Positions 4,836-37,633 are shown, counted from the stretch's first letter. The stretch: DNA of 41,561 nucleotides from Patescibacteria group bacterium (GCA_038078255.1 JBBUEH010000013.1:1-41561); one strand, 5' to 3'. A program made the numbers and translations. Notes: a model not told the origin generated them from the letters alone.

Positions 4836-4870
4836 TTTCGAAAAAGAAAGTTTGGAGAGTAGAAAACGAA

Positions 4871-6949
4871 ATGAGAAAATTAATTAAAAAAATAATTCCA
4901 TATTGCTTCATCCTCCTCATCCTCGCCGGACTTTTCGGTGCGGGGGAAGATGTGATGGCGCAAACACCTTCTTTTACAACACTAAACCCAGAACAAAAAG
5001 CTCGTTTTGATGGTCTTTATGCGACTTGCATGGAAAATCGTGGGTATGATGCAAGTGGTCCGAGTATTTGCGAAAGCCAAGCAATGAGAGTGATCTTGGG
5101 CACGGGATCACAGAATGACATCGGGGCAACAACAACAGCTACAACAACAGACGAGTCAGCATTCGACAGAGCAGTTACTAGTAAAATATGTGTACTCTCA
5201 GATTGGACTGGGGGTAGTATAGAAGGATGTATATTGCAATTTGTTTATTGGACCTTTTACACTCTTGGAGGTTGGTTGCTTGCTATTGCCGCTTCTTTGT
5301 TCAATTTTCTCATCATGATCACCCTAGGTAGCGCATTGTTAAAATCAAATTTCGTCTCTTCTGCCTGGGCAGTAGTCCGAGATCTTTCTAATCTTTTTTT
5401 CATTCTTGTTCTGCTTTACATAGCCATCAAGATGATTCTAGGATTGGGGGGGTCTGATGTAAAGAAAATGATCGTTCAGGTAATAATCATGGCCCTGCTT
5501 ATTAACTTTTCTATGTTTATGACTCACATTGTTATTGACACTTCCAATGTTCTTGCCTTAGTTTTCTACAATAAAGTCAATACCACTCCTAAAAAAGATA
5601 ACAAAGCACCGAATGCAGTAGCATCGCTTATTGATTATGCAACTGAAACAAAAGATATTGCCGGGGGTTTGACACAATCGTTTAATCCAGTATATAAGTT
5701 ACCTTCAGAATTCTTTACATCTGCCGTAATCATAAAAATACCAGGACGACCTCCGTTTAAAGAACCTATTTCAACTGGCATCTTGATCGGAATCACCGTG
5801 ATCGCTGGAGCGATTATGCTGTTCGCCGCTTATGCGCTTTTTATCTCAGCTTTAAGCTTTTTAGGCCGATTAATTGAACTTTTTATCTTAATCATCTTTT
5901 CTCCTTTCGCTTTTATGTCTCTGACTGTGCCGAAATTCGCAGGATTAGACTATTTAGGATGGGATGCGTGGCTAAAGCGCTTACTCAATGTGTCATTCAT
6001 GGCGCCAATCTTCATGTTCTTTTTGTATTTTATATTTTTATTGCTTGCAGATGGGGCAAGTATGTTTTCCGATTCGCTAAAAGGAGAAGGTGTGGTACAT
6101 ACACTTTTAGGTATTATGCTCCCGGCAATAGTAATTATGACTCTTCTCTTGAAAGCCACTGAATTCGCCAAGAAAGGTGGAGGAAAATTCGGAGAACTGG
6201 CAATCGGAGCAGGGAAACTAGTGGGTGGGCTTGCACTCGGAGCGGGGATAGGTGGAGCGGCGATGGCGGCAAGAACAACTATTGGTGGGGGTTTGGGTGG
6301 TCTAGCCAACAAAGTTGGCGCCAAGAGGCTTGGAGGTTATTTGCAGAGTAAAAGTTATGATGTACGCACAATACCGGGAGCTGGAAAACTTCTGGGTGCT
6401 ACAGGCCTAGCTGGAGGCGCTGGCGCCATAAAAACAAAAGAGGGTGGCTGGACACAGATGAAAAAAGAACAAGTGGAAAAAAGAATGAAGAGAGCAGACG
6501 AAACAATAAATAGAAAGACTTCTGGGAAAAAGAAAAAAGTGGAAGATGCACAAGCAGAACTAGATGAAAAAACACTTTTGGTAAAAGTAGACTTAGATGA
6601 AGCTAATAAAGCAATAGAAAAATGGAAAGGCGAATTAGCTGACGCACAAAGAGCAGGAGATGCAAGAGGAGTAACCAAAGCACAAATGGCTTTAGCACAA
6701 GCTAAAGACGACAAGACAAATCTACGAGCTAGAGCTGGTTTAGGGGTAGCTGAAAACAAAGTTCGCGATGCACAAAGAGATCTAGATACAGAAATTGGCA
6801 AAGTTGCTTCCGCTCAAGCGAATCGTGTAAAGAGTAGTTGGAGTAAAGCATGGGGACTATTTTCTAACCTGGGAGCATATAGTGTGGCAGGCGCAGACGA
6901 AGCTGCTAGAAATATAAGGAGGAGAGCAAAATTAGAAACAAAAACATAA
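4871..6949 (+). CDS. VirB6/TrbL-like polytopic membrane protein with Gly-rich and Lys/Ala-rich coiled-coil C-terminal tail
   Basis: ATG at 4871 follows GGAG and avoids the overlap of the 4820 start. Has a signal sequence, a Cys-containing periplasmic segment, a poly-Thr linker and at least 6 hydrophobic helices. The tail is GGGKFGELAIGAGKLVGGLALGAGIGG followed by a charged coiled coil. Confidence 0.6.
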   Translation: MRKLIKKIIPYCFILLILAGLFGAGEDVMAQTPSFTTLNPEQKARFDGLYATCMENRGYDASGPSICESQAMRVILGTGSQNDIGATTTATTTDESAFDRAVTSKICVLSDWTGGSIEGCILQFVYWTFYTLGGWLLAIAASLFNFLIMITLGSALLKSNFVSSAWAVVRDLSNLFFILVLLYIAIKMILGLGGSDVKKMIVQVIIMALLINFSMFMTHIVIDTSNVLALVFYNKVNTTPKKDNKAPNAVASLIDYATETKDIAGGLTQSFNPVYKLPSEFFTSAVIIKIPGRPPFKEPISTGILIGITVIAGAIMLFAAYALFISALSFLGRLIELFILIIFSPFAFMSLTVPKFAGLDYLGWDAWLKRLLNVSFMAPIFMFFLYFIFLLLADGASMFSDSLKGEGVVHTLLGIMLPAIVIMTLLLKATEFAKKGGGKFGELAIGAGKLVGGLALGAGIGGAAMAARTTIGGGLGGLANKVGAKRLGGYLQSKSYDVRTIPGAGKLLGATGLAGGAGAIKTKEGGWTQMKKEQVEKRMKRADETINRKTSGKKKKVEDAQAELDEKTLLVKVDLDEANKAIEKWKGELADAQRAGDARGVTKAQMALAQAKDDKTNLRARAGLGVAENKVRDAQRDLDTEIGKVASAQANRVKSSWSKAWGLFSNLGAYSVAGADEAARNIRRRAKLETKT

Positions 6950-6953
6950 ATAT

Positions 6954-7364
6954 ATGACCAATAAATTAAAACAAATAGCAATAGAAGAGATAAAAAAATT
7001 GCCAAAAGAAGCACAAGATATGATAAATTCTTTGGATTGGGGAAAAATTACGGAAGAAATTGGTAAAAAATATTTACTTTCAGAAAGTGAAATAAATGAT
7101 TTCCAAGTAGAAACTTTGTTGGTGTTGGTGGGTATTGAGAACGGAGATTTCTATGCGCAAAATATTGAAAATGAAGTCGGTACCAGCAAAGCTGAAGCAG
7201 AAAAAATTGCAAACGAAACACTAGAAAAAATATTCATTCCGATAAGTAATCTTCTGGAAGAAAATATTAAAAAAAATCTACCTAACAAAAATCCAAACCA
7301 CGAACAAAATGTTAATTTTATTCTTTCTGGCGGAGATTATTCAAGTTTTATAGAAGAAAAATAA
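6954..7364 (+). CDS. Hypothetical small protein, paralog of the next ORF
   Basis: 136 aa. Aligns by eye with 7366-7947 (LPKEAQDMINSLDW / LPTETINAINAVDW; ETLLVLVGI / ETELLLCGL; GTSKAEAEKIANE / GISKIAANELADE). Confidence 0.6.
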   Translation: MTNKLKQIAIEEIKKLPKEAQDMINSLDWGKITEEIGKKYLLSESEINDFQVETLLVLVGIENGDFYAQNIENEVGTSKAEAEKIANETLEKIFIPISNLLEENIKKNLPNKNPNHEQNVNFILSGGDYSSFIEEK

Positions 7365-7365
7365 C

Positions 7366-7947
7366 ATGAACGACACAGTAGATTTATTACAAATAAAAAT
7401 AGAGAAGGCAAGAAGGGAATTGCCCACAGAAACTATTAACGCCATCAATGCTGTTGACTGGAGGGAAGCTATCTTGGCGCTCCGAACGAAGAAGGGCTAC
7501 ACCTTCGAGCAATTAGGCGATCTGGAGCTTGAAACAGAATTGCTGTTATGTGGACTTTTAGCACCTGAGGATTACCCGAAGGAAATAGAAAAAAGAATGG
7601 GAATTTCTAAAATAGCCGCAAATGAACTGGCAGACGAAATGAATAATTCAGTATTCAAAAAAATCAGAGAAGAACTAATAAAGAATACGGAAAGAAAAAA
7701 AGTATTTCAAAAAAGACAAGAATCTCAAAAAGAAAACTCTATTTTTAGTTCCGCAGGGATTGAAATTGTCGGGGAAAAAGACATCCACCCGATGTTGCTG
7801 CAAAAATTATCCACCTCTGTTCAAACCCCAACAATAAAAACCACCCACACCCTCGAAAATATTACTCCAAAGATCGATGCCCCGATAAAACCAGCCCCTT
7901 CTTCTTATCCGCCCAAAGCAGACCCTTATCGTTTGTCACCAGAATAA
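7366..7947 (+). CDS. Hypothetical protein, paralog of the previous ORF with a Pro-rich C-terminal extension
   Basis: 193 aa. Starts 1 nt after the previous stop. Shared N-terminal domain, see 6954-7364. Confidence 0.6.
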   Translation: MNDTVDLLQIKIEKARRELPTETINAINAVDWREAILALRTKKGYTFEQLGDLELETELLLCGLLAPEDYPKEIEKRMGISKIAANELADEMNNSVFKKIREELIKNTERKKVFQKRQESQKENSIFSSAGIEIVGEKDIHPMLLQKLSTSVQTPTIKTTHTLENITPKIDAPIKPAPSSYPPKADPYRLSPE

Positions 7948-7952
7948 TATTT

Positions 7953-8387
7953 ATGCGATTCCAAGTTCCACAATTTTTAGAGATCGAGGACAAAATTTTC
8001 GGTCCGTTTACTTTCAAAGAGTTCGTCTACTTGGCGGGCGGAGCAGGTTTGTGTTTTGTACTTTATAAATTATTGGGTCTGACTATTGGGATTCTGCCGA
8101 TTTTAGCTGTAGCTGGAATCTCGCTGCTACTCACTTTCTATCGACCGAACGATAAACCTTTTATCAACATGGTTGAAGCGGGGTTGACTTATTTTATGCA
8201 AAGTAAACTTTATATTTGGAAAAGACGAGAAGGAAAAATAGATGACGGCAGAAAAAAAGCAGAAGCTCTGGAAGTAGAAAGAAAGAGAAAGCAGATAGAG
8301 GGTGGGGCAAAGTTGGGCGCTAATAAATTACGAGATCTGGCTTGGAGTTTGGATGTGCTAGATTTAAATAAACACCCAGAAAATTAA
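7953..8387 (+). CDS. PrgI-family (VirB3-like) small membrane protein
   Basis: MRFQVPQFLEIEDKIFGPFTFKEFVYL followed by two hydrophobic helices is the PrgI-type pattern. Lies directly upstream of VirB4-like genes. Confidence 0.6.
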   Translation: MRFQVPQFLEIEDKIFGPFTFKEFVYLAGGAGLCFVLYKLLGLTIGILPILAVAGISLLLTFYRPNDKPFINMVEAGLTYFMQSKLYIWKRREGKIDDGRKKAEALEVERKRKQIEGGAKLGANKLRDLAWSLDVLDLNKHPEN

Positions 8388-8394
8388 GAAAAAT

Positions 8395-9033
8395 ATGTCA
8401 TTAAATGCAAAATCAACTCAAGAGTTCGTGCCCATCAAGGAAATCCGTGATGGAATAATCGTCTTGAAAGACGATTCCTTGCGAGCGGTCGTGCTCGCCA
8501 ACTCGATCAACTTGTCTTTGAAATCATCCGATGAACAGAAAGCAACCATTCTGCAATTCCAAAATTTTCTGAATACCCTTGATTTCACTGCGCAGATTTC
8601 AATCCAATCGAGAAGACTGGACATTCGACCTTATCTCTTACTTTTAGAAGAGCGGATGAAAGCGCAGACGGAGCCCTTGCTTAAATTACAAACCAAAGAA
8701 TACATCGCCTTCATCAGAGATTTCACCGATTCGGTCAGCATCATGACGAAAAGTTTCTTCGTGGTGGTGCCTTATACCCATAATGTTTTTCAATCAAATT
8801 CCGGAATATTAGGTCGTTTGTTTGGTCGGAAAAGCAAAGAAGAGGCACGGGTAGAGAAACAAGAAGACTTCGAAGAAAAGAGGTCCCAGCTCGAGGAGAG
8901 GGTGGGTGTCGTTCAGCAGGGACTTGGTCGTTGTGGCATAAACTCAGCTCAACTTGGCACCGAAGAAGTAGTAGAAGTATTTTATAAAGTTTTTAACCCC
9001 GGAGAAGTGGAAGGAAAAATTAGGATAGAATAA
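8395..9033 (+). CDS. VirB4 N-terminal-domain-like protein (separate ORF)
   Basis: 212 aa. TQEFVPIKEIRDGIIVLKDDSLRAVVLANSINLSLKSSDEQ resembles the N-terminus of Gram-positive VirB4/TcpF/ConE-type ATPases. Stop at 9031-9033 lies 1 nt before the next ATG. Confidence 0.5.
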   Translation: MSLNAKSTQEFVPIKEIRDGIIVLKDDSLRAVVLANSINLSLKSSDEQKATILQFQNFLNTLDFTAQISIQSRRLDIRPYLLLLEERMKAQTEPLLKLQTKEYIAFIRDFTDSVSIMTKSFFVVVPYTHNVFQSNSGILGRLFGRKSKEEARVEKQEDFEEKRSQLEERVGVVQQGLGRCGINSAQLGTEEVVEVFYKVFNPGEVEGKIRIE

Positions 9034-9034
9034 T

Positions 9035-10900
9035 ATGATGGATTTTTTAAAAAAATTATTTGGAGGAAAAAACGCCAAGCTTGGTGGAGGAAGTTCAAAT
9101 TCCAGCCTCTTGGGAACTTCCATTCTGCCCATTTTGCCGGATCAAATTTACGAGAACGCCTCCTTCGAGCTTCAAGATATCATTGCGCCCTCTGCGCTTA
9201 AAATTGAATCGAAGTCTATTAGCCTAGGCGACAAAATCGCTCGCACTTTTTTCATTATCTCTTACCCCAGATTCTTGACGGACAATTGGTTTTCTCCGAT
9301 TATCAATCTAGATAAAATTTTTGACATTTCAATTTTTATTCATCCAATAGATACATCGCTCATCTTGCGACAATTTCAGAAAAAGGTGGCGGAAGTGCAA
9401 AGCCAGATCAATGTGCGAGAAGCCAAGGGTATGGTCCGAGATCCAATGCTGGACACTGCTTACCGAGATTTAGAAGGGTTGCGGGATAATTTAATTCAGG
9501 CGCAAGAAAAAATGTTCGATGTGGGTATTTACATCACCATTTATGCCGATAATGATTTGGAACTTTTCAAATTGGAAAATGAAATAAAATCAATGCTGGA
9601 GTCAAAACTAATCTATATTAAACCAGCGCTTTTCCAGCAAGAAGATGGTTTCAAAAGCGTCATCCCGATCAATACGGACCGTCTAAACATTCACCAAAAA
9701 TTAAACTCCGAGCCACTTTCCAGCGTTTTCCCGTTTATTTCTTTCGATTTAACTTCCGACCGTGGAATACTTTATGGAATCAATCGACATAATTCAAGTC
9801 TGGTGATTTTCGACAGATTTTCGCTTGAAAATTATAATTCTGTCACCTTTGCCAAGGCCGGTTCGGGTAAATCGTATGCCACCAAACTAGAAATTTTAAG
9901 ATCTCTGATGTTCGACATTGATGTTCTCGTTATCGACCCAGAAAGAGAATATGAATTCTTGGCAGAAGCGGTCGGTGGAAGATATTTTAATATTTCTCTC
10001 TCGAGCGACCATCACATGAACCCCTTTGACTTGCCGATTCCCCGAGAAGACGAAACAGCGGAAGATGTTCTCAGGTCAAATATTATAAATTTAGTCGGAC
10101 TTTTCCGGTTGATGCTCGGAGGACTCACGCCCGAAGAAGATTCGATGGTGGACAGAGCTATTTCAGAAACTTATGCCATCAAAGACATTACCCCAGAGTC
10201 AGACTTTTCGAACATTGACCCTCCGCTCCTTTCGGATTTCGAAATGGTCTTGGGAGGCATGGATGGAAGTGATTCTGTCGTGCAGAGATTAGCAAAATAC
10301 ACGAAAGGTTCCTGGGCCACATTTTTAAACAGACCCAGCAATGTGGATATCAATAAAAAATTTGTTGTTTTTTCTATTCGAGACATGGAAGACGAGTTGA
10401 AACCAGTGGCGATGTATATCATCATGCACTACATCTGGAATTCAATCAGGAAAAATTTAAAGAAAAGGTTATTGGTAGTGGACGAAGCCTGGTGGATGAT
10501 GAAGTCGGAAGACACTGCCTCTTTCCTTTATTCTATTGCCAAGCGAGGCAGAAAATATTATTTGGGTCTTTCCACCATCACTCAGGATGCGGGAGACTTT
10601 ATGAATTCGCCTTATGGCATACCAATCATCACCAACTCTTCTATCCAGCTTTTACTAAAACAATCTCCGACCACGATTGATGTTCTGCAAAAGACTTTCA
10701 ATCTTTCTGACGAAGAAAAGTATCTTCTGCTCGAATCCAATGTGGGAGAAGGAATATTCTTTGCCGGATTAAAGCATGTGGCGATAAAAATAATTGCTTC
10801 TTACACCGAAGATCAAATCATCACCTCCGACCCTTCGCAAATATTATCAAACCGCAAAGCTAAAGAAGAACACGAAAAAGAAGAGCTGGGCAGACAGTAG
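9035..10900 (+). CDS. VirB4/TraE-type T4SS ATPase
   Basis: 621 aa. Walker A KAGSGKSY, Walker B LLVVDEAW. IIAPS..GDKIARTFFIISYP N-domain pattern. Confidence 0.85.
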   Translation: MMDFLKKLFGGKNAKLGGGSSNSSLLGTSILPILPDQIYENASFELQDIIAPSALKIESKSISLGDKIARTFFIISYPRFLTDNWFSPIINLDKIFDISIFIHPIDTSLILRQFQKKVAEVQSQINVREAKGMVRDPMLDTAYRDLEGLRDNLIQAQEKMFDVGIYITIYADNDLELFKLENEIKSMLESKLIYIKPALFQQEDGFKSVIPINTDRLNIHQKLNSEPLSSVFPFISFDLTSDRGILYGINRHNSSLVIFDRFSLENYNSVTFAKAGSGKSYATKLEILRSLMFDIDVLVIDPEREYEFLAEAVGGRYFNISLSSDHHMNPFDLPIPREDETAEDVLRSNIINLVGLFRLMLGGLTPEEDSMVDRAISETYAIKDITPESDFSNIDPPLLSDFEMVLGGMDGSDSVVQRLAKYTKGSWATFLNRPSNVDINKKFVVFSIRDMEDELKPVAMYIIMHYIWNSIRKNLKKRLLVVDEAWWMMKSEDTASFLYSIAKRGRKYYLGLSTITQDAGDFMNSPYGIPIITNSSIQLLLKQSPTTIDVLQKTFNLSDEEKYLLLESNVGEGIFFAGLKHVAIKIIASYTEDQIITSDPSQILSNRKAKEEHEKEELGRQ

Positions 10901-10918
10901 ATATGATATAATTAAAAT

Positions 10919-11938
10919 ATGAAGTTTAGACTTTTATCATTATATTTAGTTGTGATCCTTTCAGTCTTTGGAATAATTTTCTCGTTCAGTTTAAATAAAA
11001 TCAGGGCGGCTTCTTCGAGTAGTGTCTTGGTCAACATTGCGCCAGAAAATCCAGCCCCACATGAAGATGTCACTATTGATTTAAGTAGTTATGCTAATAA
11101 TTTAGACAGTGTTTCGATTCTTTGGTCTTTAAATGGCAGAAATGTTTTGTCTGGAATCGGTAAAAAGTCATTTTCTCTTACCGCCCCCGCCGCCGGAGAG
11201 GAAGCCATTATTACAGCCAATATTTCTTTCCCCGATGGTAATTTAGAAAAAAGAATAATCATCCGACCTTCCGTGATGGTGCTCCTCTCCCAGGCGACAG
11301 ATTCTTTCGTTCCACCATTCTATAGAGGGAAAGCTATGCCCACAGCAGACAGTGAAATTAAGATTGTTGCAATGCCAGAGATTAGCGCCTTAGGCTCTCC
11401 AGAGAGCCTAAGGCGCTCTTTGGTTGATCCAAAAAACATGACTTATGCCTGGAAGAAAGATTATACCAACAATCAAGAAGCGTCGGGTTATGGTAAAAAT
11501 TTTTTCATTTATACGAATGATTATTTAGAAGATTCAAATACTGTCTCAGTAGTAGCCTCGACAGTAGATCAGAAATATTCTTCTGAAGCAAACATTGAGG
11601 TGGGGGTAGCGGAGCCGAAAATTGTTTTCTATAAAAATGACAATGCGCTTGGAACAATTTGGGAAAGAGCTCTCTCTGATTCATATCGAATGGAAAATGC
11701 AGATATGATTGTGGAAGCGGCGCCTTATTTCATTTCACCTAAAGAATTACTGCATCCCTACCTGATCTGGACTTGGTCTATTAATGACACTGCCGTGCCT
11801 GTGCCAGACTTCAAGAAAAATTTCATGCCTCTGCGAATACAAAGCGGAACTTCTGGAACGGCCAAGCTCCGACTGGTTATCGAAAACATGGACAAAATTT
11901 TCCAAACGATGAGCAAAGAGGTGAATATAGAATTTTAA
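10919..11938 (+). CDS. Secreted/anchored hypothetical protein (beta-rich)
   Basis: 339 aa with N-terminal signal-anchor. No family recognised. Contains an in-frame 34-nt palindrome. Confidence 0.6.
   Translation: MKFRLLSLYLVVILSVFGIIFSFSLNKIRAASSSSVLVNIAPENPAPHEDVTIDLSSYANNLDSVSILWSLNGRNVLSGIGKKSFSLTAPAAGEEAIITANISFPDGNLEKRIIIRPSVMVLLSQATDSFVPPFYRGKAMPTADSEIKIVAMPEISALGSPESLRRSLVDPKNMTYAWKKDYTNNQEASGYGKNFFIYTNDYLEDSNTVSVVASTVDQKYSSEANIEVGVAEPKIVFYKNDNALGTIWERALSDSYRMENADMIVEAAPYFISPKELLHPYLIWTWSINDTAVPVPDFKKNFMPLRIQSGTSGTAKLRLVIENMDKIFQTMSKEVNIEF
11384..11417. repeat. 34-nt palindrome (16-bp perfect arms, 2-nt centre) in-frame inside a CDS
   Basis: agcgccttaggctctc ca gagagcctaaggcgct, checked base by base. 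Encodes ..SALGSPESLRR.. Confidence 0.9.
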
Positions 11939-11942
11939 AACA

Positions 11943-12944
11943 ATGAAATTTTCAAAATACATTTTAATACTGATTGTACTGGTTGGACTTTTTGGTTCAA
12001 TAAATAAAGCTTACGCAGAAACATATGATGAATGCATATTGGGATATACTAAACAGGGAATACCTCGTGAAACGGCAAATAATTTTTGTCGTTTACCAGA
12101 CGCTCCACCAGCAACTCCCCCGGGTAGTTACAAACTTCTGGCTCCACTACCCGATATAACAACTTTCGACCCTGCGCCGAAAACCGGCGAAGATAATGTT
12201 CTGGGTGGGTATTTAAACCTAATGATTGGGTTACTTATCGGCATAGCCGCAGTCATGGCGGTGGTGATGATTGTGGTGGGCGGGATAGAGTACATGACCA
12301 GTGAATTGCCGGGAAATAAAGAACATGGCAAAGAGAGGATCAGGGATGCGATTTTCGGACTAATTTTAGCCCTCGGCTCCTGGGCGCTTTTGAATACAAT
12401 CAATCCTGATTTATTAAATACAAATATTAAAATAGAAACAGCGACTGTAAGTGTGGAGATGGCGGAACAATTAAAAATCTATTCGGGACAAGGAACATGT
12501 GAACCTATAACTACTGGTGTATGTAGCCCTGCGGCATTACAAAATGCTGGATTCACATCGGGAGAACAAGCTTCTTCTATATGCAATGGAGAGAGCAAAG
12601 GTAATGCAGCTGCGCAAAGTACAGTAGATAAATGTAGTGACGGTAAAGCCTTTTCTCATGGACTATTTCAAATAAATGTGATTGCGCACGCTAATGAAAT
12701 TCCAGGAGGCGTTTGTAGTGGAGTATTTCAAGTAAATGGAAGTGGGACACAGGGAACTTGCTTAAAAAAAAGTGGTAGTATTTGTATAGAATATGATTGT
12801 AGTGTTAAAGACCAAGCAAAATATCAATCTTGTATTGGTTATATTACAAATCCAACCAACAACATAACATACGCAAAAAATTTAAAAGCAGCTAGAAGCT
12901 GGACACAATGGGGTGCCTATAATTCATGTAGGAGTAAATTTTAA
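11943..12944 (+). CDS. T4SS pilin-like TM-hairpin protein fused to a Cys-rich SLT (VirB1-like lytic transglycosylase) domain
   Basis: Signal peptide, then LLIGIAAVMAVVMIVVGGIEYMTS...AIFGLILALGSWALLNTINP (pilin-like hairpin). The C-terminal domain carries the SLT motifs E-S (NGESKG), GLFQIN and AYN (WGAYNS). Confidence 0.65.
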   Translation: MKFSKYILILIVLVGLFGSINKAYAETYDECILGYTKQGIPRETANNFCRLPDAPPATPPGSYKLLAPLPDITTFDPAPKTGEDNVLGGYLNLMIGLLIGIAAVMAVVMIVVGGIEYMTSELPGNKEHGKERIRDAIFGLILALGSWALLNTINPDLLNTNIKIETATVSVEMAEQLKIYSGQGTCEPITTGVCSPAALQNAGFTSGEQASSICNGESKGNAAAQSTVDKCSDGKAFSHGLFQINVIAHANEIPGGVCSGVFQVNGSGTQGTCLKKSGSICIEYDCSVKDQAKYQSCIGYITNPTNNITYAKNLKAARSWTQWGAYNSCRSKF

Positions 12945-12949
12945 TTTTT

Positions 12950-14320
12950 ATGCAAAAAAGAAATTTTATACTTTTAATAATCGTCTTAGTTCTGGTAGTT
13001 ATTGGAGTTTTTGTGTTTTTATATTTCCAAAATGGAACAGAGGAAGAAAGTGAAGGCACAAATTTTATCGCCCGATTCAATCCCTTTGCCAGCAATAAGG
13101 GAACTCCTTCAGCCGGGAATCCACCTGTCGATGTATCCGGCTACGAACCCGGTCCGGAAGAAACAGAAAAGTTAAAATTAGTAAAAGTTTCCAGCATGCC
13201 CATTGCCGGATATACAATTTTTATCAAAGAAAGATTAAAAGAAATATCCTTGATTCCTCCCCTCCTTATGGAGGAGGGGGTTGGGGGTGGTGATAATTCT
13301 ACACCACCTCGCCCTTCGGGCACTCCTCCTCAGAAAGGAGGAGATAAAAAAAAGCCCACTCCGCCTCCCACAGAATTTATGCCCGCCTTACGCTATGTGG
13401 CAAAAGCGAACGGAAATATTTATCAATCATTTGTCGACAAAATAGAAGAGAGAAAGTTTTCAGGAACAATTATCCCGAAAGTATATGACGCATATTTCGG
13501 CAACAAAGGTGAGTCTGTGGTCATGCGCTATTTGAAAGGGGGAGGAGAAACAATAGAAACTTTCGTCGGCTCGTTGCCGAAAGAATACTTGGGTGGCGAT
13601 CTGGCTGAAGAAAACGAAATAAAAGGATCCTTCTTGCCGAACAATATCAAAGACCTTAGTGTCTCTCCAGACGGTTCAAAAATATTTTATTTATTTGAGA
13701 TTGGAAACAATATAGTAGGAACAACTTTAAACTTCTTAGATAACAAAAAAGTTCAAGTTTTTGATTCCCCTTTCACTGAATGGCTTTCGCAATGGGGGAA
13801 TGAAAAAACAATCCTCCTTTCGACTAAACCTTCTGGGAATGCCCCCGGCTATACATACAGTCTCGATCTAATCAAAAAGAATCTGCTGAAAGTCTTGGGT
13901 GAGATAAATGGGCTCACCACGCTTCTGAGTCCGGATGGAAAATTTATTATTTATACTGACAACAGCTTATTGCTTTCTGTCTTTTATGCAGACAGTCGGA
14001 ATTCAAACAGCTTGGGGATAGGAACTTTGCCAGAAAAATGTCTTTGGAATAAGACAAGCGAGGCTGTTTACTGCGCTGTGCCAAAATTTATTAATGCTGG
14101 CCTATATCCAGATATTTGGTATCAGGGAGAAGTGTCTTTCTCTGACCAGTTCTGGAAAATAGATATCCAAACTGGAAATGCTACCCTCCTCCTAGACCCT
14201 CTGACCGTTCCCGGTGGAGAAGAAATTGATGGAATAAAATTAGCCTTAGATAAAGACGAGGATTACTTATTTTTTGTAAATAAAAAAGATTCTTTTCTGT
14301 GGAAATTGGATTTGAAGTAG
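12950..14320 (+). CDS. Membrane-anchored protein with Pro-rich linker and PD40/TolB-like beta-propeller repeats
   Basis: N-terminal TM helix. SPDGSKIFY and SPDGKFIIY blade motifs. Carries the 92-nt repeat element in its linker. Confidence 0.6.
   Translation: MQKRNFILLIIVLVLVVIGVFVFLYFQNGTEEESEGTNFIARFNPFASNKGTPSAGNPPVDVSGYEPGPEETEKLKLVKVSSMPIAGYTIFIKERLKEISLIPPLLMEEGVGGGDNSTPPRPSGTPPQKGGDKKKPTPPPTEFMPALRYVAKANGNIYQSFVDKIEERKFSGTIIPKVYDAYFGNKGESVVMRYLKGGGETIETFVGSLPKEYLGGDLAEENEIKGSFLPNNIKDLSVSPDGSKIFYLFEIGNNIVGTTLNFLDNKKVQVFDSPFTEWLSQWGNEKTILLSTKPSGNAPGYTYSLDLIKKNLLKVLGEINGLTTLLSPDGKFIIYTDNSLLLSVFYADSRNSNSLGIGTLPEKCLWNKTSEAVYCAVPKFINAGLYPDIWYQGEVSFSDQFWKIDIQTGNATLLLDPLTVPGGEEIDGIKLALDKDEDYLFFVNKKDSFLWKLDLK
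13253..13344 (+). repeat. Multi-hairpin repeat element, copy A (in-frame inside a CDS)
   Basis: About 85-90% alignable by eye to the reverse complement of 23568-23672. Hairpins: cctcc-ttat-ggagg, ggtggtg-N9-caccacc, gccc-ttc-gggc, ctcctcc-N7-ggaggag. Confidence 0.8.
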
Positions 14321-14321
14321 C

Positions 14322-14365
14322 AACTTGGAGGTTCTTCCTCCACTTGGAGGAAGAACCTCCAAGTT
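14322..14365. terminator. Bidirectional palindromic terminator (20-bp perfect arms, 4-nt loop) between convergent genes
   Basis: aacttggaggttcttcctcc actt ggaggaagaacctccaagtt. Overlaps the jag stop codon by 2 nt. Its 5' 25 nt recur at 18983-19007. Confidence 0.75.
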
Positions 14366-14861
14366 AAATACCAATATACTTGATCACTACCCGCCGACTC
14401 GATCCAAAACCAACAGATTCAGTCTGAAGATCGGTAGAATCAGATAAAAATTCATGCACCACTCGGCGCTCGAAGGCAGACATCGGATCGACTTCTATGT
14501 TTGATTTGAAATACCTCGCTCGCTCAGACATCATATGGGCTACCGCTCGAATGTTTTCTACTCTTTTTTTCTGAAAACCATTAATGTCAATCAAGAAAGA
14601 TCCTGCTTCGCCCCCAATGACGGTCTTAGGGGAATCCCCTAAGACCGTCATTGGGGTTTTCCCCTCAACTATCCTTCGCACCAGGTGGTTCAAAGCATAA
14701 AGCGCCTCACCGTCTTGCGAAATAAAAAAATGTGGTTCGTTCACTTCAATAGAGTACCAAGTATTCCCCCCATTTTCTTCTGAAATGGTGATTTTTTCTA
14801 ACGATACTCCTGTCTTCGCAATTAATTCCTGGATTAAATTTTGTATTTGTTCTTTGTCCAT
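14364..14861 (-). CDS. jag: Jag/KhpB-like RNA-binding protein (KH + R3H)
   Basis: 165 aa. R3H-type ERRVVHEFL...SxG..P.RRVVI end. Conserved position downstream of yidC. Confidence 0.8.
   Translation of the reverse strand: MDKEQIQNLIQELIAKTGVSLEKITISEENGGNTWYSIEVNEPHFFISQDGEALYALNHLVRRIVEGKTPMTVLGDSPKTVIGGEAGSFLIDINGFQKKRVENIRAVAHMMSERARYFKSNIEVDPMSAFERRVVHEFLSDSTDLQTESVGFGSSRRVVIKYIGI
14612..14656. repeat. 45-nt perfect palindrome (22-bp arms, 1-nt centre) in-frame inside jag
   Basis: ccccaatgacggtcttagggga a tcccctaagaccgtcattgggg, every pair checked. Encodes ..PMTVLGDSPKTVIGG.. Confidence 0.95.
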
Positions 14862-14863
14862 AT

Positions 14864-15622
14864 CTATTTTCCGGTAATTAAAATTTTTACTTCTTCATCT
14901 AATACTTTTTTTTCTGTTTTACTCACATAAATCTGCTGACCCACAGTAAAGATATTACTCGTAATCCAATATAACGCAATTGCTCCAGAAATACTGTAAG
15001 CAATCCAAGTAACCACAAATGGGAAAATATATTTCATTTGCATATTCATACTTTTACTAAAACTTTCAGCAAAGGTGCCCGTCTTGGCGCCTGGAACACC
15101 AGAAACTGGTGGCTGAGGCATAAAGTGCGCTTGTAAATATTGAGATACCCCAGCCAAAACTGCCAAAATTAAACTTTTCTGACTCATATCCAGAATTCCT
15201 AAAAACATCATATTTAATTTTTCTGGAATGTGAATAAAAGAATAGAGCAACCCATTTTCAAAATTTATTCCCTTAAAGAAAACATAATAAAGAGCAAAAA
15301 TTATGGGAATTTGAATTAAAACCAAAAGACACCCGGAAAAAGGATTGGTTTTGTGTGTTTTATAAAGTTCAAAGGTAAGCTTGGCTTGTTCTTCTTTACT
15401 GACACCACTTTTTTTAATTTTTTCAAGCTCTGGAGCCAGCAGAGCCATGGCGGCCTGACTTTTGATGGACTTTTGAGAAAGAGGGAAGAGAATAATTTTG
15501 ACCAGAATAGTCAGAATAATCACTGCAAGACCAACATCTCCCCCAGGGATAACAGAAACTAAAAAAGCCAAGGCGTTGAGTAATGGCTTATATAAAAGTG
15601 TATTCCAAATAAATGAGAACAT
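14864..15622 (-). CDS. yidC: Membrane protein insertase YidC (short form)
   Basis: 252 aa, multi-TM. Conserved rnpA-yidD-yidC-jag order. Confidence 0.85.
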   Translation of the reverse strand: MFSFIWNTLLYKPLLNALAFLVSVIPGGDVGLAVIILTILVKIILFPLSQKSIKSQAAMALLAPELEKIKKSGVSKEEQAKLTFELYKTHKTNPFSGCLLVLIQIPIIFALYYVFFKGINFENGLLYSFIHIPEKLNMMFLGILDMSQKSLILAVLAGVSQYLQAHFMPQPPVSGVPGAKTGTFAESFSKSMNMQMKYIFPFVVTWIAYSISGAIALYWITSNIFTVGQQIYVSKTEKKVLDEEVKILITGK

Positions 15623-18982: not shown

Positions 18983-19007
18983 AACTTGGAGGTTCTTCCT
19001 CCAAGTT
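18983..19007. terminator. Bidirectional hairpin terminator (10-bp stem), same sequence family as 14322-14365
   Basis: aacttggagg ttctt cctccaagtt. Overlaps the stop codon of the minus-strand PBP gene by 2 nt. Confidence 0.7.
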
Positions 19008-21540
19008 AGTTTACTACCTCAAATTTCAAACTCGTTTCATTGCTATTAGAAACACTATCATAACCAATTATTCTCAACTCATTTTCCGTCTGCAGATTTT
19101 CTAATTCAGAAGGGAGTAAAGAAAAAATAAAAGGAGCGTTAGAAGTTCCCAGATAAATGTTATTGATGAAAATATCAATTTTGGCAAGCGGGTATTGGCC
19201 AGAACTTGAAATTTTTAAATTTATTTTTTTATCTCGAGGATAAGTCGTTTCTTTATTTGGTTCAATAATTGAAATAATTGGTCTGGATGCTTCAGTGTGC
19301 ACATCATCTACTTCATTTGGTTTTTCTCCCAAAGTTGTTGTGCCATATCTTCCTCTATTTTGCGCCCACCAATTCTGAATGGGTATTTCCCAATGGCTAA
19401 ATTGCCAGTTCTTTTCAGGATTTTGGGGTGGAGTTCCCGGAATATCATCCCGGTCTATCCAAAAAAGAATGGAATGCACATTGGTCACTACTTTTTCTTC
19501 TAAAGTTTCCTTCGGAGTGAGTTCGGTGGCTAATTTGCCAGAAATTTTATCAATAAAAAAGTTTTCGTTTCCTTGCCAGAATCCACGCAAGGCAGGCTTG
19601 ACTGTTCGTGGATCAACTTCTAAATTTGGTTCTTCGAATTTTTCATCCGGTAAAATTTTCAATGCTTCATTTGTAAATTTATTCCAAATGGGTCCGGCAA
19701 GCGCCGCTCCACCCTTTTTCATCGGTTTGTTGTCATTATTGCCTGCCCAAACACCCACAACGACAGACGGAGTGTAGCCAATAGTCCAAGCATCTTTGTT
19801 GTTATTAGTCGTTCCGGTTTTTACGGCAACGGTTTTGTTGGGGATATAAAGCGTAGATCGTGCGCCGAAAGTCGGGATGCGGGATTTCTCATCACTTAAA
19901 ATATCCGAGATAGTTAAAGCCGTGTTTTTAGTTAAAACTTCTCGAGGTCTGGGCTGGAATTCTTCTAAAATTTTTCCACTCGCATCTTCAATTTTTAAAA
20001 TTCCAGTCTGCGGGTTTCTTGTCCCATTGTTAGCAAAAACTCCGTAAGCTGAAGTTAAATCAAGAAGCGACACCTCGCCCCCTCCGATGACCAGAGTCAG
20101 TCCGTATCGGCTAATGTCGCTGAGGGTGCTGATGCCCATGTCTTCTGCCACTCTTAAAGAATCAGAAAGTCCTGCCAAATAAAAAAGTTTTACCGCTGGA
20201 ATGTTAATTGATTGCGCCAAAGCATCTCGCAGACTGAGCGGGCCTCGAAACTTTCCATCATAATTATCCGGCATATAACAATCCTGCTGGTTGTGTCCCG
20301 GGAGCGCTTTTCCTGCCGCATTGCAGGTGCTTTGGAATTCTGTAGGAAGGTCGAAGAGTACTGTGTCAGGCGTAAATCCTTTACTAAAGGCTGTCGCATA
20401 AATAAATGGTTTGAAAGAAGACCCTGGTTGCCTGGAAGCGGTAGCGATGTTAAAGTTTCCGTCAATATTTTTATCAAAGTAATCTCGAGAACCTACCATG
20501 GTTAAAATTTGCCCTGTGGTGGGGTCTATTGCTACTAAGCCGGCATTTGTTCCGTTCCAATCTTTTTCATTTTTTAGAGCGCCTTCTTGAACAATTTGTT
20601 CTCCTTTTTCTTGGAGTTCATAATGGAGCGTGCTTGTCACTTTTAATCCACCCCTCTCGGCTGTTTCTGTGCCGTATTTTTCTTCTAAATAATCTTTAAT
20701 AAAGAAAACGAAATGAGGCGCTTTGATTCCAGTGGTTGTTTGCGGAACGAAAACAACTAATTCGCTCTTTGCTTTGTCGTGTTCTTCTTGGTTGATGAAA
20801 TTAAGTTCCAACATTCTAGAAAGGACGAGATTCTTCCTTGCTTCTAGTTTTTCTTTGTTTTTTCCGTAGGGAGAAAGTGAAGTTGGAGACTGGGGGATAG
20901 ATGCTAAATAAGCCGCTTCCGAGAGGGTCAAATCAATGGCGCTCTTGTTGAAATAAGTTTTACTTGCTTCTTCTATGCCGTAAACGGTCCCTCCGTAAGG
21001 AGCCTCGTTTAAATAATATTCTAGAATTTTTTCTTTTGGCATGGATCGGTCTATTTTGATGGCCAAAACCCATTCCTTTATTTTTCGAGTATAAGTTTTT
21101 TTCTGAGTCAAGAGAGTGTTTTTTACCAGTTGTTGAGTGATGGTTGAACCACCTTGGGTACGGCCCGTGCCGAGGAAATTCGACAACACCGCTCGAAGAA
21201 TAGAAGTGATCCTTATTCCGTTGTGGTTATAAAATTCAGAATCCTCGATGGCCACCGTGGCGTTCTTGATATTTATTCCCATATTTTCGAACGAGATGTC
21301 TGTTCTTTTAGTGTCTCGATGGATGTCGTAAAGTAGAATTTCGCCCGTGCGATCGTAAATTTTCGTAGAATTTTCTATTATCCTGTCTTCGAAGGAATGA
21401 AAGTCAGGAATTTTCATCGAAACAAGCCAGAGGATTACAAATCCGGTGAATAAAATAAAAATACTCACCCCCAACATTATTAAATTCCTAGCAAATCTAC
21501 TCTGCTTGCATTTTTTATACATATCATAAAATTTCTTCAT
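19006..21540 (-). CDS. Class A penicillin-binding protein (transglycosylase/transpeptidase) with C-terminal extension
   Basis: 844 aa. GT51 motifs EDSEFYNHNGI and RTQGGSTITQQL. TPase motifs SSFKP (SxxK) and KTGTT. Confidence 0.9.
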   Translation of the reverse strand: MKKFYDMYKKCKQSRFARNLIMLGVSIFILFTGFVILWLVSMKIPDFHSFEDRIIENSTKIYDRTGEILLYDIHRDTKRTDISFENMGINIKNATVAIEDSEFYNHNGIRITSILRAVLSNFLGTGRTQGGSTITQQLVKNTLLTQKKTYTRKIKEWVLAIKIDRSMPKEKILEYYLNEAPYGGTVYGIEEASKTYFNKSAIDLTLSEAAYLASIPQSPTSLSPYGKNKEKLEARKNLVLSRMLELNFINQEEHDKAKSELVVFVPQTTTGIKAPHFVFFIKDYLEEKYGTETAERGGLKVTSTLHYELQEKGEQIVQEGALKNEKDWNGTNAGLVAIDPTTGQILTMVGSRDYFDKNIDGNFNIATASRQPGSSFKPFIYATAFSKGFTPDTVLFDLPTEFQSTCNAAGKALPGHNQQDCYMPDNYDGKFRGPLSLRDALAQSINIPAVKLFYLAGLSDSLRVAEDMGISTLSDISRYGLTLVIGGGEVSLLDLTSAYGVFANNGTRNPQTGILKIEDASGKILEEFQPRPREVLTKNTALTISDILSDEKSRIPTFGARSTLYIPNKTVAVKTGTTNNNKDAWTIGYTPSVVVGVWAGNNDNKPMKKGGAALAGPIWNKFTNEALKILPDEKFEEPNLEVDPRTVKPALRGFWQGNENFFIDKISGKLATELTPKETLEEKVVTNVHSILFWIDRDDIPGTPPQNPEKNWQFSHWEIPIQNWWAQNRGRYGTTTLGEKPNEVDDVHTEASRPIISIIEPNKETTYPRDKKINLKISSSGQYPLAKIDIFINNIYLGTSNAPFIFSLLPSELENLQTENELRIIGYDSVSNSNETSLKFEVVN

Positions 21541-23017: not shown

Positions 23018-23539
23018 CTAAAATTTTAAATACGCAAAGGCAGTCAAGGCTGTGGCGATAGCGTCTAATTCGTCATCAGATTTTTTAAAACTATCAATAT
23101 CGACGAGTATTTTCACCATTTTATTTATCTGTGTTTTGTCCGCTCGACCGTAGCCCGTGGTGGCTACTTTTATTTGTAAGGGTGTTGCTTCAAAGATAGA
23201 AAGTCCCGCTTGTACTCCCTCATAAATCACCACTCCGCGCGCTTCTGCCACTCTCATAACTGTCTTCTGATTTGTATTTAAAAATAAAGTTTCTATTGCC
23301 AGTACTTCTGGTTTGTATTCTTTGATTACCCTCTTTACTTCTTCGCCGATTAGTTTCAACCGTTCGGAGAATTCCAATTTACTAGAAGTTTTAAAACATT
23401 CAGAAAAAATAACTTTCTCTTTTTTTTGTCCAGCATAGGAGTTTCCTATGATGTCATAGGAAACTCCTATGCTGGGTTTTTCTAACACTGCTATTCCCAG
23501 TCTTTCAAAACCTGGATCAATGCCTAGAATTTTTGTCAT
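23018..23539 (-). CDS. ruvC: Holliday junction resolvase RuvC
   Basis: 173 aa. ILGIDPG..LGIAVLE N-terminus, AIETLF, DELDAIATAL C-terminal catalytic region. Carries an insertion of about 15 aa encoded by a palindrome. Confidence 0.9.
   Translation of the reverse strand: MTKILGIDPGFERLGIAVLEKPSIGVSYDIIGNSYAGQKKEKVIFSECFKTSSKLEFSERLKLIGEEVKRVIKEYKPEVLAIETLFLNTNQKTVMRVAEARGVVIYEGVQAGLSIFEATPLQIKVATTGYGRADKTQINKMVKILVDIDSFKKSDDELDAIATALTAFAYLKF
23430..23475. repeat. 46-nt palindrome (22-bp perfect arms, 2-nt centre) in-frame inside ruvC
   Basis: ccagcataggagtttcctatga tg tcataggaaactcctatgctgg, pairs checked. Encodes ..PSIGVSYDIIGNSYAG.. between the first beta-strands of RuvC. Confidence 0.95.
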
Positions 23540-23567: not shown

Positions 23568-23672
23568 TCTCCTCCTTATGGAGGAGGAGTGCCCCCCGAC
23601 ATAGGTCGGGGGCGAAGTGGTGATTAAAGAATTACCACCCCCAACCCCTCCTTGATGAAGGAGGGGAGGAAT
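23568..23672 (-). repeat. Multi-hairpin repeat element, copy B (intergenic, inverted relative to copy A)
   Basis: Its reverse complement aligns with 13253-13344. Hairpins: ctcctcc-ttat-ggaggag, gcccccgac-atag-gtcgggggc, ggtggtg-N13-taccacc, cccctcc-N8-ggagggg. Confidence 0.8.
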
Positions 23673-24149: not shown

Positions 24150-24176
24150 CTTCCGCTAGGAAAGACCTAGCGGAAG
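24150..24176 (-). terminator. Perfect 11-bp hairpin abutting the ruvB stop codon
   Basis: cttccgctagg aaaga cctagcggaag. No clear U-tract, so terminator function is uncertain. Confidence 0.4.
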
Positions 24177-31064: not shown

Positions 31065-31904
31065 ATGGCAAATCCACTTTCCAAAAAAGACGCTGTTAAA
31101 TATCTCAGTCTTAACGAGAAAACCTTCGATAACTACTTTAAGAATGCGCATGAGTTTCCATGCATCGCGAGGATTGGCGCACGGGGCAGATTCTATTTCG
31201 ACGAAGAAGTACTTCGTAAATGGAAAGAAGGAGTGGCGTGGAGGACTGTCGAATTAACTAAAGATGATTACGCATTGTGTTTGGATTTTGCTCTCGCACA
31301 GCATTTCAGAAACTACGTTCAATCAGATTTCGGCACTGGACGACAGCGAGAATTTGGACAAAAAATAACAAACTGGGTCAAAGGACAACTGGGAGAAGTT
31401 GCTGTTAGAAAATTCTTTAAAAGAGAATTTGGTGTAGACGTTGACCTCGATTTTGATATTCGTGAACAAATTGTCTTACAAGACATTACAGGAATTAAGA
31501 ATAACGGAAAAATGAGGGTTCCTAAAATTGGGGTAGGAATAAAATCATCAAAACCTAAAAGTGCCTTCTTGGTACTTGGAGCAAATGAAATTAACATTAA
31601 AGGACGCAGGTCTGATATTTATATTTACTGCCGTCCAGACATTCCAGACGACCATTTACTTAGAATAGCAAAGGAAGAAATCAACGAAGTAGTAAAAGGC
31701 AGACCGCACTATTTAAAGTACAAAGATCTAATGCCTGAATTTACCAATATCTCCTGTGAAGTTGTGGGCTGGTGTCACTACACAGATTTAAGAGAAACAG
31801 ATAAAATTCCAGGACAGGATTTTGAAGGCACTAGATTCGTAAAAGAATCCGGCCTTTTAAGGAAATTAAAAGAAGACTGGCAAGAACTTATAAAGCAACT
31901 GTAG
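31065..31904 (+). CDS. Putative type II restriction endonuclease (PD-(D/E)xK-like) with N-terminal HTH_17/excisionase-type DNA-binding domain
   Basis: ATG at 31065 follows a TTGATT-17-CATACT promoter. The N-terminus LSKKDAVKYLSLNEKTFDNYF..GRFYFDEEVLRKWK is MerR/Xis-like. The core has GQLGEVAV, ..LQDITG.. and ..GVGIKSSK. The 3' end overlaps the convergent C5-MTase gene by 17 nt. Confidence 0.55.
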   Translation: MANPLSKKDAVKYLSLNEKTFDNYFKNAHEFPCIARIGARGRFYFDEEVLRKWKEGVAWRTVELTKDDYALCLDFALAQHFRNYVQSDFGTGRQREFGQKITNWVKGQLGEVAVRKFFKREFGVDVDLDFDIREQIVLQDITGIKNNGKMRVPKIGVGIKSSKPKSAFLVLGANEINIKGRRSDIYIYCRPDIPDDHLLRIAKEEINEVVKGRPHYLKYKDLMPEFTNISCEVVGWCHYTDLRETDKIPGQDFEGTRFVKESGLLRKLKEDWQELIKQL

Positions 31905-33033: not shown

Positions 33034-33061
33034 GAATGTATGACTTTATTTTAACATGTTA

Positions 33062-33957: not shown

Positions 33958-34104
33958 ATGAGTGCAAACTCAAAAACAACCCTTCGTGGTCGTGATGCTG
34001 AAACTGGTGAATTCACTACTGTAGAGGAAGCACGACGTCATCCAAAGGATCGTGTCGTGGAAAGAGTTCCAAAACCTGGCTACGGGGACACAAAAGATAA
34101 ATAA
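33958..34104 (+). CDS. Small basic/acidic hypothetical protein (48 aa)
   Basis: Hand translation gives MSANSKTTLRGRDAETGEFTTVEEARRHPKDRVVERVPKPGYGDTKDK. Followed by a hairpin and terminator. Confidence 0.45.
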   Translation: MSANSKTTLRGRDAETGEFTTVEEARRHPKDRVVERVPKPGYGDTKDK

Positions 34105-34162
34105 TCTTAGGGCAACCTAAGATTATTATAAAAAACTGCCTAGAGGAAGGGGCGGTTTTTTT
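34103..34162 (+). terminator. 9-bp hairpin (aatcttagg gcaa cctaagatt) followed by a rho-independent-type terminator (aaaaactgcc N10 ggcggttttt)
   Basis: Stems checked by hand. T-run at 34156-34162. Confidence 0.6.
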
Positions 34163-37589: not shown

Positions 37590-37633
37590 AAACAAAAAAC
37601 ACCCCAAATAAAATTTTGAGGTGTTTTTTGTTT
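37590..37633. terminator. Bidirectional terminator (14-bp A/U-flanked stem) between convergent trx-like and csp genes
   Basis: aaacaaaaaacacc N16 ggtgttttttgttt. Confidence 0.7.

Follow-up and report, generated by a model that had tools for sequence, protein, structure and literature searches.

A perfect in-frame palindrome in jag, probably one copy of very short dispersed repeats in Patescibacteria

A 41,561-nt stretch of DNA from a Patescibacteria group bacterium (GCA_038078255.1 JBBUEH010000013.1:1-41561, here called the window, with positions counted from its first letter) carries a perfect palindrome inside the essential gene jag at 14612-14656. The sequence is CCCCAATGACGGTCTTAGGGGA-A-TCCCCTAAGACCGTCATTGGGG, two arms of 22 nt around a single central base with zero mismatches. 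We consider it probable that this palindrome is one copy of dispersed selfish repeats which resemble REPINs and Rickettsia palindromic elements (RPEs), are very short and normally perfect, are tolerated in protein loops and are kept palindromic. The hosts of the family are genomes of Candidatus Nomurabacteria/Paceibacteria, within the candidate phyla radiation (CPR). CPR bacteria have tiny, gene-dense genomes.

The palindrome in jag and its orthologues

The 45 nt of the palindrome make up 15 codons, which are read on the minus strand as the peptide PMTVLGDSPKTVIGG, residues 70-84 of Jag. A sequence-only reading of the window had given the coordinates, the 22-bp arms without mismatch, the length of 15 codons, the peptide and the identity of jag, and all of these were correct on recheck. 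The gene order is rnpA-yidD-yidC-jag, adjoining dnaA-dnaN, and the closest protein and locus matches were metagenome-assembled genomes of Candidatus Nomurabacteria, Paceibacterota and Patescibacteria. A Pfam match placed the R3H domain at residues 103-161. In an AlphaFold2 model based on 34 orthologues both Jag domains were confident, and residues 70-86 were the only segment with a predicted local distance difference test (pLDDT) below 50. This segment is the element-encoded peptide; it separates the KH-like domain at the N terminus from the R3H domain, and the linker that holds the element is predicted to be disordered.

Perfect, non-overlapping hairpins with an arm of at least 10 nt numbered 9 in the window and 0.70 +/- 0.79 in dinucleotide shuffles of it (n=100). 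This is approx. 13 times the shuffled expectation, an excess that the sequence-only reading had anticipated. The longest arm was 22 nt in the window and 13 nt at most in the 100 shuffles. The hairpin of the jag element had a calculated stability of -43.5 kcal/mol as RNA (z -6.9) and -26.9 kcal/mol as DNA (z -9.3), and no shuffle was as stable in either case. Independent assemblies of several samples (ENA, NCBI, Logan) had an identical Jag protein on 11 contigs in total, and in those of the 11 that were fetched the element DNA was 100% identical.

Known structured RNA families were set aside, as Rfam covariance models run against the window gave only two tRNAs at gathering score and none at the palindromes. 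An intrinsic (Rho-independent) terminator was likewise rejected, since the jag copy lies inside the coding sequence and has no T run; its coding strand goes on with GCGAAGC. Canonical bidirectional intrinsic terminators, AAAAACACCCC...GGGGTGTTTTT, were seen at window 37590-37633 and at approx. 1500-2100 in many of the related loci L001-L080. Because these terminators occur in the same genomes, the palindromes without T runs are a class apart from them.

The palindromes of the window and of related loci fall into several families, classes A-F, and the jag copy belongs to class A. We fetched 80 jag loci from one-genome-per-species contigs and read their DNA (loci are given L numbers, Jag proteins P numbers). 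In a protein alignment of 34 orthologues with 67-88% identity both Jag domains were free of gaps and the linker was hypervariable in length. Many orthologues had no extra segment (P0030, P0038, P0094 and P0104 among others), some had one of half length (P0013 'TVL', P0099 'SDL'), and others had a different palindrome at the same place. The jag palindrome is a presence/absence indel relative to its orthologues, in line with the insertion supposed from the sequence alone.

Peptides related to that of the window occurred in many orthologues (PKTVIGDSPMTVF, PKSDLGDSPKSDL, HMSDLWDSHKSDMW). These were also encoded by palindromic, mostly perfect DNA, with arms of 21-24 nt (L004, L005, L007, L024, L027, L042, L079), and the same residues without palindromic DNA, a case that the sequence-only reading had raised against its own proposal, were not found among them. 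A metagenome scan for the core pattern of class A added the jag copy of L095. The palindrome was decayed in L001, L002, L009 (one G.T) and L014. At the same jag site a class B palindrome, CCCCTCTCCTTGNCAAGGAGAGGGG, encoding PLLxKERG, was present in L015, L017, L020, L034, L043 and L071, and a class E-like palindrome in L058.

Dispersal and maintenance of the palindromes

Class A is centred on GGGGAWTCCCC, with arms that are quasi-hairpins themselves, each approx. CCCCAAGTC-G-GACTTAGGGG. The element consists of two inverted copies of a hairpin of approx. 20 nt, consensus CCCCnAnGTCGGACTTAGGGG, joined at GGGGA-W-TCCCC, and for this reason two folds are open to a copy, a single long hairpin or a pair of small hairpins.

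In jag, class A was found in the window and in L004, L005, L007, L024, L027, L042, L079 and L095. Outside jag it was found in L021, within rnpA, and between genes or cistrons of L065, L089 (two copies), L091 (three copies within 11.7 kb) and L093, which gives at least 7 extragenic sites across genomes; the L065 copy lies in non-coding DNA. The copy in L021 is in-frame and forms a 13-aa loop insertion in RnpA that none of 44 other orthologues has. When the metagenome scan was run with the core pattern GNCTTAGGGGAWTCCCCTAAGNC, 4 of the 8 matches were class A at other sites. The same pattern had 0 matches in IMG/VR, and a phage origin was set aside. The ribosomal-protein operons of L089 (5316-12174) and L091 (829-1332 and 11468-11518) had perfect palindromes of 30-51 nt in most of the intercistronic spacers examined. 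These spacers were those between the genes of ribosomal proteins L14 and L24, S8 and L6, and L6 and L18, both sides of a 104-aa open reading frame (ORF) between the genes of L2 and L4, and the DNA upstream of the S8 gene; the two loci had different palindromes in orthologous spacers.

The sister families were dispersed in a similar manner. Class B was found in jag, in orthologues of three ORFs of 456, 193 and 136 aa and in intergenic DNA. Class E, AACTTGGAGGTTCTTCCTCCAAGTT, occurred twice between convergent genes in the window, and in L058 it was in-frame in both jag and rnpA. For class D, CATAGGAGTTTCCTATG, the window and L019 had orthologous copies in one and the same RuvC loop. Class C comprised the types GCCTAAAGC/AGCGCCTTAGGC, and class F was TAGGCAAGACCTA.

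At the RuvC turn, consensus LEKNKGDKKEKV, the window and L019 had a palindrome-encoded insertion of 12-15 aa. The class D segment was an insertion relative to most of 54 orthologues, L019 sharing it, and solved RuvC structures, including PDB 7w8d, had a gap at the insertion point. Around this turn (window 23018-23539 and the L001-L080 orthologues) more than 10 genomes had different insertions of 4-15 aa, several of them encoded by palindromes. Loops of RnpA and of ORF10919 were insertion hot spots as in RuvC, and the same hot spots held different palindrome families in different genomes. The ORFs of Jag, RuvC and RnpA remained open with the elements in them, and their conserved residues were kept. 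Similarity between copies stopped sharply at the palindrome ends. Two kinds of location were seen for class A and its sister families, short spacers between genes and, for in-frame copies, permissive loops or linkers within conserved proteins.

The double ('D') forms described so far were accompanied by single-hairpin ('S') forms. The S form in jag of L065, CCCCTATGTCAGACATAGGGG, equals the intergenic D form of L065 minus 24 nt between internal direct repeats, and window 18983-19007 equals window 14322-14365 minus 19 nt between two CCTCCA direct repeats. Because of these two deletions the S forms look like derivatives which would arise from double forms via slippage between the internal direct repeats. 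In a comparison of L034 (13960-14005) with L001 (5858-5884) a simpler hairpin, CAGATAGAGC...GCTCTATCTG, apparently had a palindrome inserted in its loop, which suggests either nested insertion or stepwise growth.

The jag element was common to the sister genomes L007/L009 and L001/L005, with compensated or decaying changes, and its carriers were scattered in a DnaA+YidC tree. L004 and L027, which are distant in this tree, had a distinctive variant, CCACATGTC(G/A)GACTTGTGGGA, that was 95% identical between them, with flanking jag 68% identical and the similarity ending exactly at the palindrome ends. Vertical descent and repeated arrival of the jag element both seem to happen.

In the conspecific strain L081 approx. 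95 nt of the jag linker were swapped for other hairpins; to either side of them the jag DNA was identical (99% outside the linker). The L081 contig (1-1025, compared with window 14263-14908) had low coverage, came from the same aquifer and contained an unrelated gene upstream in place of yidC; its origin is a recombinant strain, or else the contig is chimeric. Strain L084 was 99.84% identical to the window over 13.6 kb, and 12 of the 22 differences fell within 64 nt (window 19474-19537, in the penicillin-binding protein (PBP) gene), changing only three amino acids. A local inversion or a link to a palindrome was considered for this cluster and rejected; the cluster appears to have come from a diverged relative by recombination over a short patch, unrelated to a hairpin. 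From the L081 linker patch and the L084 cluster we infer that short-patch recombination between lineages is active here and moves linker variants.

To describe how the arms change we aligned 16 double forms of class A, 13 from jag and 3 intergenic. The alignment had 20 invariant columns out of 49, and 99.4% of the 336 stem cells of the long hairpin were standard pairs. Changes on both sides were present in 10 of the 21 pairs (53 cells), a level reached by 0 of 500 shuffles, and when the partner was slid by one column the pairing fell to approx. 50%. The alternative two-hairpin fold was 81% paired, with covariation, and this was above its controls. Many of the compensated changes were flips from A-T to T-A. 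In the reading frame of the element each third codon position pairs with another third position, and some compensated changes were nonsynonymous, for example GTC/ACC (V, T) in the window against GAC/TCC (D, S) in L095. The arms co-vary and keep their complementarity even at the cost of amino-acid changes.

Four genome pairs were compared in which the flanking jag was 68-82% identical and 33-62% of the third positions differed. The elements of these pairs differed at 2-5 of approx. 43 core positions compared. Third-position differences within the element amounted to 8 of 60, against 27.8 expected from the flanking jag (p = 6e-8), and among the differing sites eight were compensated and three uncompensated. 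The nucleotides of the element are more conserved than the synonymous sites of its host gene. Over all loci, 44 of the hairpins with at least 14 paired positions were perfect and 13 had 1-3 mismatches.

The indel status and the compensated changes support the earlier proposal of an inserted or actively maintained, RPE-like palindromic element. Its description as recently inserted was too simple, as the jag copy is common to lineages with flanking jag 68-82% identical and shows compensated changes.

Other palindromes of the window

The positions of the jag element and of further palindromes are collected in the table below. The sequence-only reading had grouped five of the other hairpins with the jag palindrome by a (C/T)TAGG...CCTA(A/G) core. 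These hairpins do exist; they belong to several of the families A-F, of which only some have TAGG/CCTA. Hairpins beyond that set were found at 661-687, 1064-1086, 14322-14365, 18983-19007 and 23645-23666. TAGG was present in the arms of 23 hairpins against 2.9 expected and usually lay 3 nt away from the inner end of a perfect arm. Classes B and E are without TAGG, and the families do not align with each other. Five of the nine window hairpins with an arm of at least 10 nt, the jag copy included, lay in-frame inside coding sequences.

Table. Palindromic elements of the window and the host gene jag. Arm and spacer lengths are given in nt as arm+spacer+arm; D, double form; S, single-hairpin form.
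Feature	Position	Strand	Context
Class A element, D form	arms 14612-14633 and 14635-14656, central base 14634	minus	in jag
jag (khpB-like), host gene, 165 aa	14364-14861	minus	element in inter-domain linker
Class E palindrome, D form, 21+2+21	14322-14365		spacer between convergent 456-aa ORF and jag
Class E, S form, 10+5+10	18983-19007		between convergent dnaN and PBP gene
Class D palindrome, 22+2+22, unit CATAGGAGTTTCCTATG	23430-23475	minus	in-frame in ruvC, beta-hairpin loop, encodes PSIGVSYDIIGNSYAG
Class C palindrome, 16+2+16	11384-11417	plus	in-frame in 339-aa ORF of the T4SS-like cluster (type IV secretion system, T4SS)
Class C-like palindrome, 12+7+12	28173-28203	plus	in-frame in polA
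Class F hairpin, TTAGG-CAAGA-CCTAA core	661-687	plus	in-frame in ksgA, variable surface loop
TAGG-loop-CCTA hairpin, 11+5+11	24150-24176		directly 3' of ruvB stop codon
TAGG-loop-CCTA hairpin, 12+4+12	34100-34127		gap between ORF ending at 33691 and ORF starting at 34265
Class B hairpin CCCCTCCTTGATGAAGGAGGGG, 9+4+9	23645-23666		no long ORF over it
Imperfect class B-like hairpin (CCCCTCC..GGAGGGG)	13256-13281	plus	Pro/Gly-rich segment of 456-aa ORF

The 44-nt perfect palindrome next to jag takes up the entire gap between two convergent stop codons, and the stop codon of jag, TAA, takes its 'AA' from the end of the palindrome. Window 14337, within this palindrome, is the point at which four short-read contigs from Logan all stopped, and from this we concluded that palindromic elements break short-read assemblies. 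The class C palindrome at 11384-11417 is an insertion of approx. 6 aa relative to 30 orthologues of the 339-aa ORF. In polA the hairpin separates the part for the 5'-3' exonuclease domains from that for the polymerase domain.

Two in-frame perfect hairpins were observed in ksgA (661-687 and 1064-1086). The former was considered as an insertion and rejected, since relative to Bacillus subtilis KsgA and solved structures it occupied a variable loop with no net insertion; not every coding hairpin is therefore a simple indel. The Pro/Gly-rich low-complexity part of the 456-aa ORF (13256-13344) contains two imperfect CCTCC...GGAGG hairpins. Orthologues of this ORF have perfect class B hairpins, and part of its 'low complexity' may be decayed palindromic elements.

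The T4SS/conjugation-like cluster of the window (2136-14320) lies directly beside the rnpA-yidC-jag/dnaA-dnaN region. Its Pfam matches, obtained with identical genes in L082/L083, were a TraG-type P-loop, TraC-like, PrgI-like and T4SS-pilin families; several large ORFs had no Pfam match, and the cluster was syntenic in many of 80 related loci. At 31888-33691 a C-5 cytosine DNA methyltransferase gene adjoins a LexA-like (S24 peptidase) gene, with no evident restriction enzyme.

Possible origins and meaning of the elements

If the jag palindrome is a copy of a dispersed selfish repeat, its history could be pictured as follows. The DNA would be copied to new sites and would survive in a coding sequence only where the sole open frame yields a harmless peptide rich in Pro, Gly, Ser and Asp; in the class A consensus the other two frames contain TAA or TAG. 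The identity of the arms would be restored at the DNA level, with one arm serving as template for the other, and fold-back or template-switch synthesis could do this either whenever the element is copied or as the DNA is replicated.

Several observations weigh against this picture. No transposase or HUH enzyme was found among the window ORFs by Pfam or in 1.41 Mb of related loci. A RAYT or TnpA(IS200)-like hairpin-binding enzyme, which the sequence-only reading had proposed to look for, was not found in these 1.41 Mb, which are far short of a whole genome; tblastn with IS200 and IS608 TnpA queries, a weak test, gave only matches with E > 0.6. Among 20 ORFs of L089 and L091 (10 per locus) there was no transposase, 18 matching housekeeping Pfam families and 2 none. 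At 24 copies no consistent flanking direct repeat was seen that could be a target-site duplication. A terminal GTAG or CGTC tag was not found at the element ends, which were CCCC/GGGG, AACTT/AAGTT and similar; CGTC occurred only internally and only in the window copy. No transposition event was observed, nor any empty/filled polymorphism whose limits coincide exactly with those of the element. The L081 patch of approx. 95 nt is larger than the element and resembles recombination, not excision. The arms of L007/L009 co-evolve in place, which is also expected of a functional hairpin under selection, and the trees were neighbour-joining trees of few proteins.

Known short repeats offer the closest parallels. 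REPINs are made of two inverted REPs which form a hairpin, with compensatory stem changes and an alternative 'clover' fold (PMC3116915). REPs lie between unidirectional and convergent ORFs and their ends can supply stop codons; REP dimers are found inside replication and repair genes, and such intragenic REPs are documented exceptions to the extragenic location (PMC3733652). The elements described here are alike in being an inverted pair of short palindromes that gives one long hairpin or a two-hairpin 'clover' (PMC3116915; PMC3733652), with a dispersed palindromic unit of 20-40 bp (approx. 20 nt in class A) and several families per genome. They are also alike in their compensatory stem changes, in singlets resembling doublet remnants, in sites between unidirectional or convergent genes, in ends that supply stop codons and in occasional in-frame dimers in replication and repair genes. 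They differ in that the arms are normally perfect, whereas REP arms are imperfect, and in having almost no spacer (0-2 nt) and no terminal GTAG/CGTC tag; TAGG, where present, adjoins the loop. REPs are mobilised by RAYT tyrosine transposases (IS200/IS605-type Y1 enzymes), whose gene usually has REPs at its flanks, and are extragenic, whereas no RAYT was found in the 1.41 Mb covered here and a large share of the hairpins is intragenic. The CPR host group is not listed among REP hosts in PMC3733652. Since the tag and the enzyme were not found, membership of the jag element in REPIN/RAYT is not established.

RPEs are in-frame palindromic repeats in conserved genes of a reduced-genome bacterium, also found in intergenic DNA, which add surface peptides while function is kept (PMC2229807; PMC3733652). 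In these respects the elements are alike. RPEs are 105-146 bp long and imperfect and form sequence families specific to Rickettsia, whereas the elements of 25-50 bp described here are mostly perfect and have a CPR host, which sets them apart by description. RPEs are reported to lose their repeat identity over time (PMC6649704), whereas the present elements stay perfect through compensated changes. Miniature inverted-repeat transposable elements (MITEs; Correia/NEMIS, ERIC, RUP) are likewise small, non-autonomous stem-loop repeats that are sometimes fused in-frame to genes (PMC2229807). MITEs are however approx. 100-200 bp long, have terminal inverted repeats around an internal region and are usually flanked by TA or other target-site duplications, whereas the present elements are inverted repeats over their entire length and showed no duplication. 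By size and structure the elements belong to neither RPEs nor MITEs.

Perfect inverted repeats within translated genes, with both arms coding, are also known from mitochondria of Nematomorpha (PMC6649704). As here, these palindromes tend to be either perfect or absent and are gained and lost between species, and active arm conversion or template switching has been proposed for their maintenance (PMC6649704). Their arms encode conserved protein parts, are up to 284 bp long and have not been reported to form dispersed families, whereas the elements in this study are short loop indels whose families are common to several loci and genomes.

An explanation that we consider possible, though on balance unlikely, is that the palindrome is a functional hairpin under purifying selection, as a signal for mRNA stability or processing, a translation pause between the Jag domains or the site of a dimeric or hairpin-binding protein. 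The repeats would then be regulatory modules of the host and not selfish, which is compatible with a mobile origin followed by exaptation. The nucleotide conservation above the synonymous sites of the flank, the strong covariation, the 20 invariant columns and the very stable RNA fold are all consistent with it. So are the copies in ribosomal-protein intercistronic spacers and between convergent genes, as REP-like hairpins in such spacers act on mRNA (PMC3733652). However, many orthologues have no hairpin at the site, unrelated palindrome families substitute for it, it was replaced in the conspecific strain L081, and no Rfam family matched. In coding copies the sense strand had no excess of G.U (3) over A.C (6) mismatches, these numbers being small, and tolerance of wobble pairs at the RNA level was set aside as an explanation. 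Moreover many compensated changes were A-T to T-A flips, which are impossible via a wobble intermediate. RNA-level selection seems less likely as the cause of arm identity.

It is improbable that the elements were never mobile, each palindrome having arisen in place by template switching, through perfection or extension of a quasi-palindrome, and having been kept perfect in the same way. The binary distribution of 44 perfect and 13 imperfect hairpins would fit such an origin, as would the compensated transversions and nonsynonymous compensations, the co-evolution of arms in L007/L009 and the nested palindromes of L034 and L001. The same mechanism has been proposed for the hairworm mitochondrial palindromes (PMC6649704), and in a survey of 118,019 genomes across the tree of life the highest densities of perfect inverted repeats were those of Campbellbacteria and Kaiserbacteria, two related CPR phyla (PMC13155455). 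Yet the same sequences of 20-45 nt occur at non-orthologous sites (class A in jag, rnpA and ribosomal-protein spacers; class E in intergenic DNA, rnpA and jag), similarity ends exactly at the element ends with flanks 68% identical, and the carriers are scattered in the tree. Template switching may nevertheless be the means by which the arms are kept identical.

Selection on the protein, with the 15 residues as a functional linker motif and the DNA symmetry incidental, is very improbable: related peptides do recur in many orthologues, but the changes keep base pairing and not chemistry (between the window and L095, V to D together with T to S), conservation is highest at synonymous positions, the segment, predicted as disordered, is missing from many orthologues, and the same DNA is present in non-coding spacers. 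Chance or an assembly or amplification artefact has next to no probability: De Bruijn assemblers mis-handle palindromes and four contigs did stop at 14337, but arms in shuffles never exceeded 13 nt (9 hairpins against 0.70 in number), independent assemblies and samples were identical (an N-gap in L082 being due to scaffolding only), and related perfect palindromes stand at the same site in approx. ten other genomes from other studies. A DNA uptake sequence was set aside by reasoning, as there was no single short conserved motif at high copy.

A dispersed, selfish, REPIN/RPE-like repeat remains the reading that we favour. What is distinctive in these elements is that they are ultra-short, normally perfect, frequently in-frame and hosted by CPR bacteria. 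Literature searches on Patescibacteria, Parcubacteria and CPR in connection with palindromic or in-frame elements returned no description of such elements in CPR genomes, and no explanation of the high inverted-repeat density of CPR turned up. A bolder version, which we regard as doubtful, takes them as 'self-perfecting' coding palindromes, that is, ultra-short mobile DNA without a dedicated transposase, both new copies and repairs being made by fold-back or template-switch synthesis from one arm to the other, with each copy reset to perfect. If this were true, loss of hairpin nucleases in reduced CPR genomes would let the elements colonise loops of essential proteins, which would explain the top inverted-repeat density of Paceibacteria-type phyla.

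In the jag copy, which lies in the gene of a housekeeping protein, synonymous drift and amino-acid identity alike are overridden by a constraint on DNA symmetry. The indel hot spots confound alignment and phylogeny of the CPR marker proteins RuvC, RnpA and Jag, and the palindromes themselves interrupt assemblies from short reads. This locus makes it testable whether such palindromes persist through selection on the hairpin, through conversion of one arm by the other or because mobile copies turn over. It also suggests a source for the inverted-repeat density of CPR genomes, namely REPIN-like palindrome families located between cistrons and in-frame inside essential genes.

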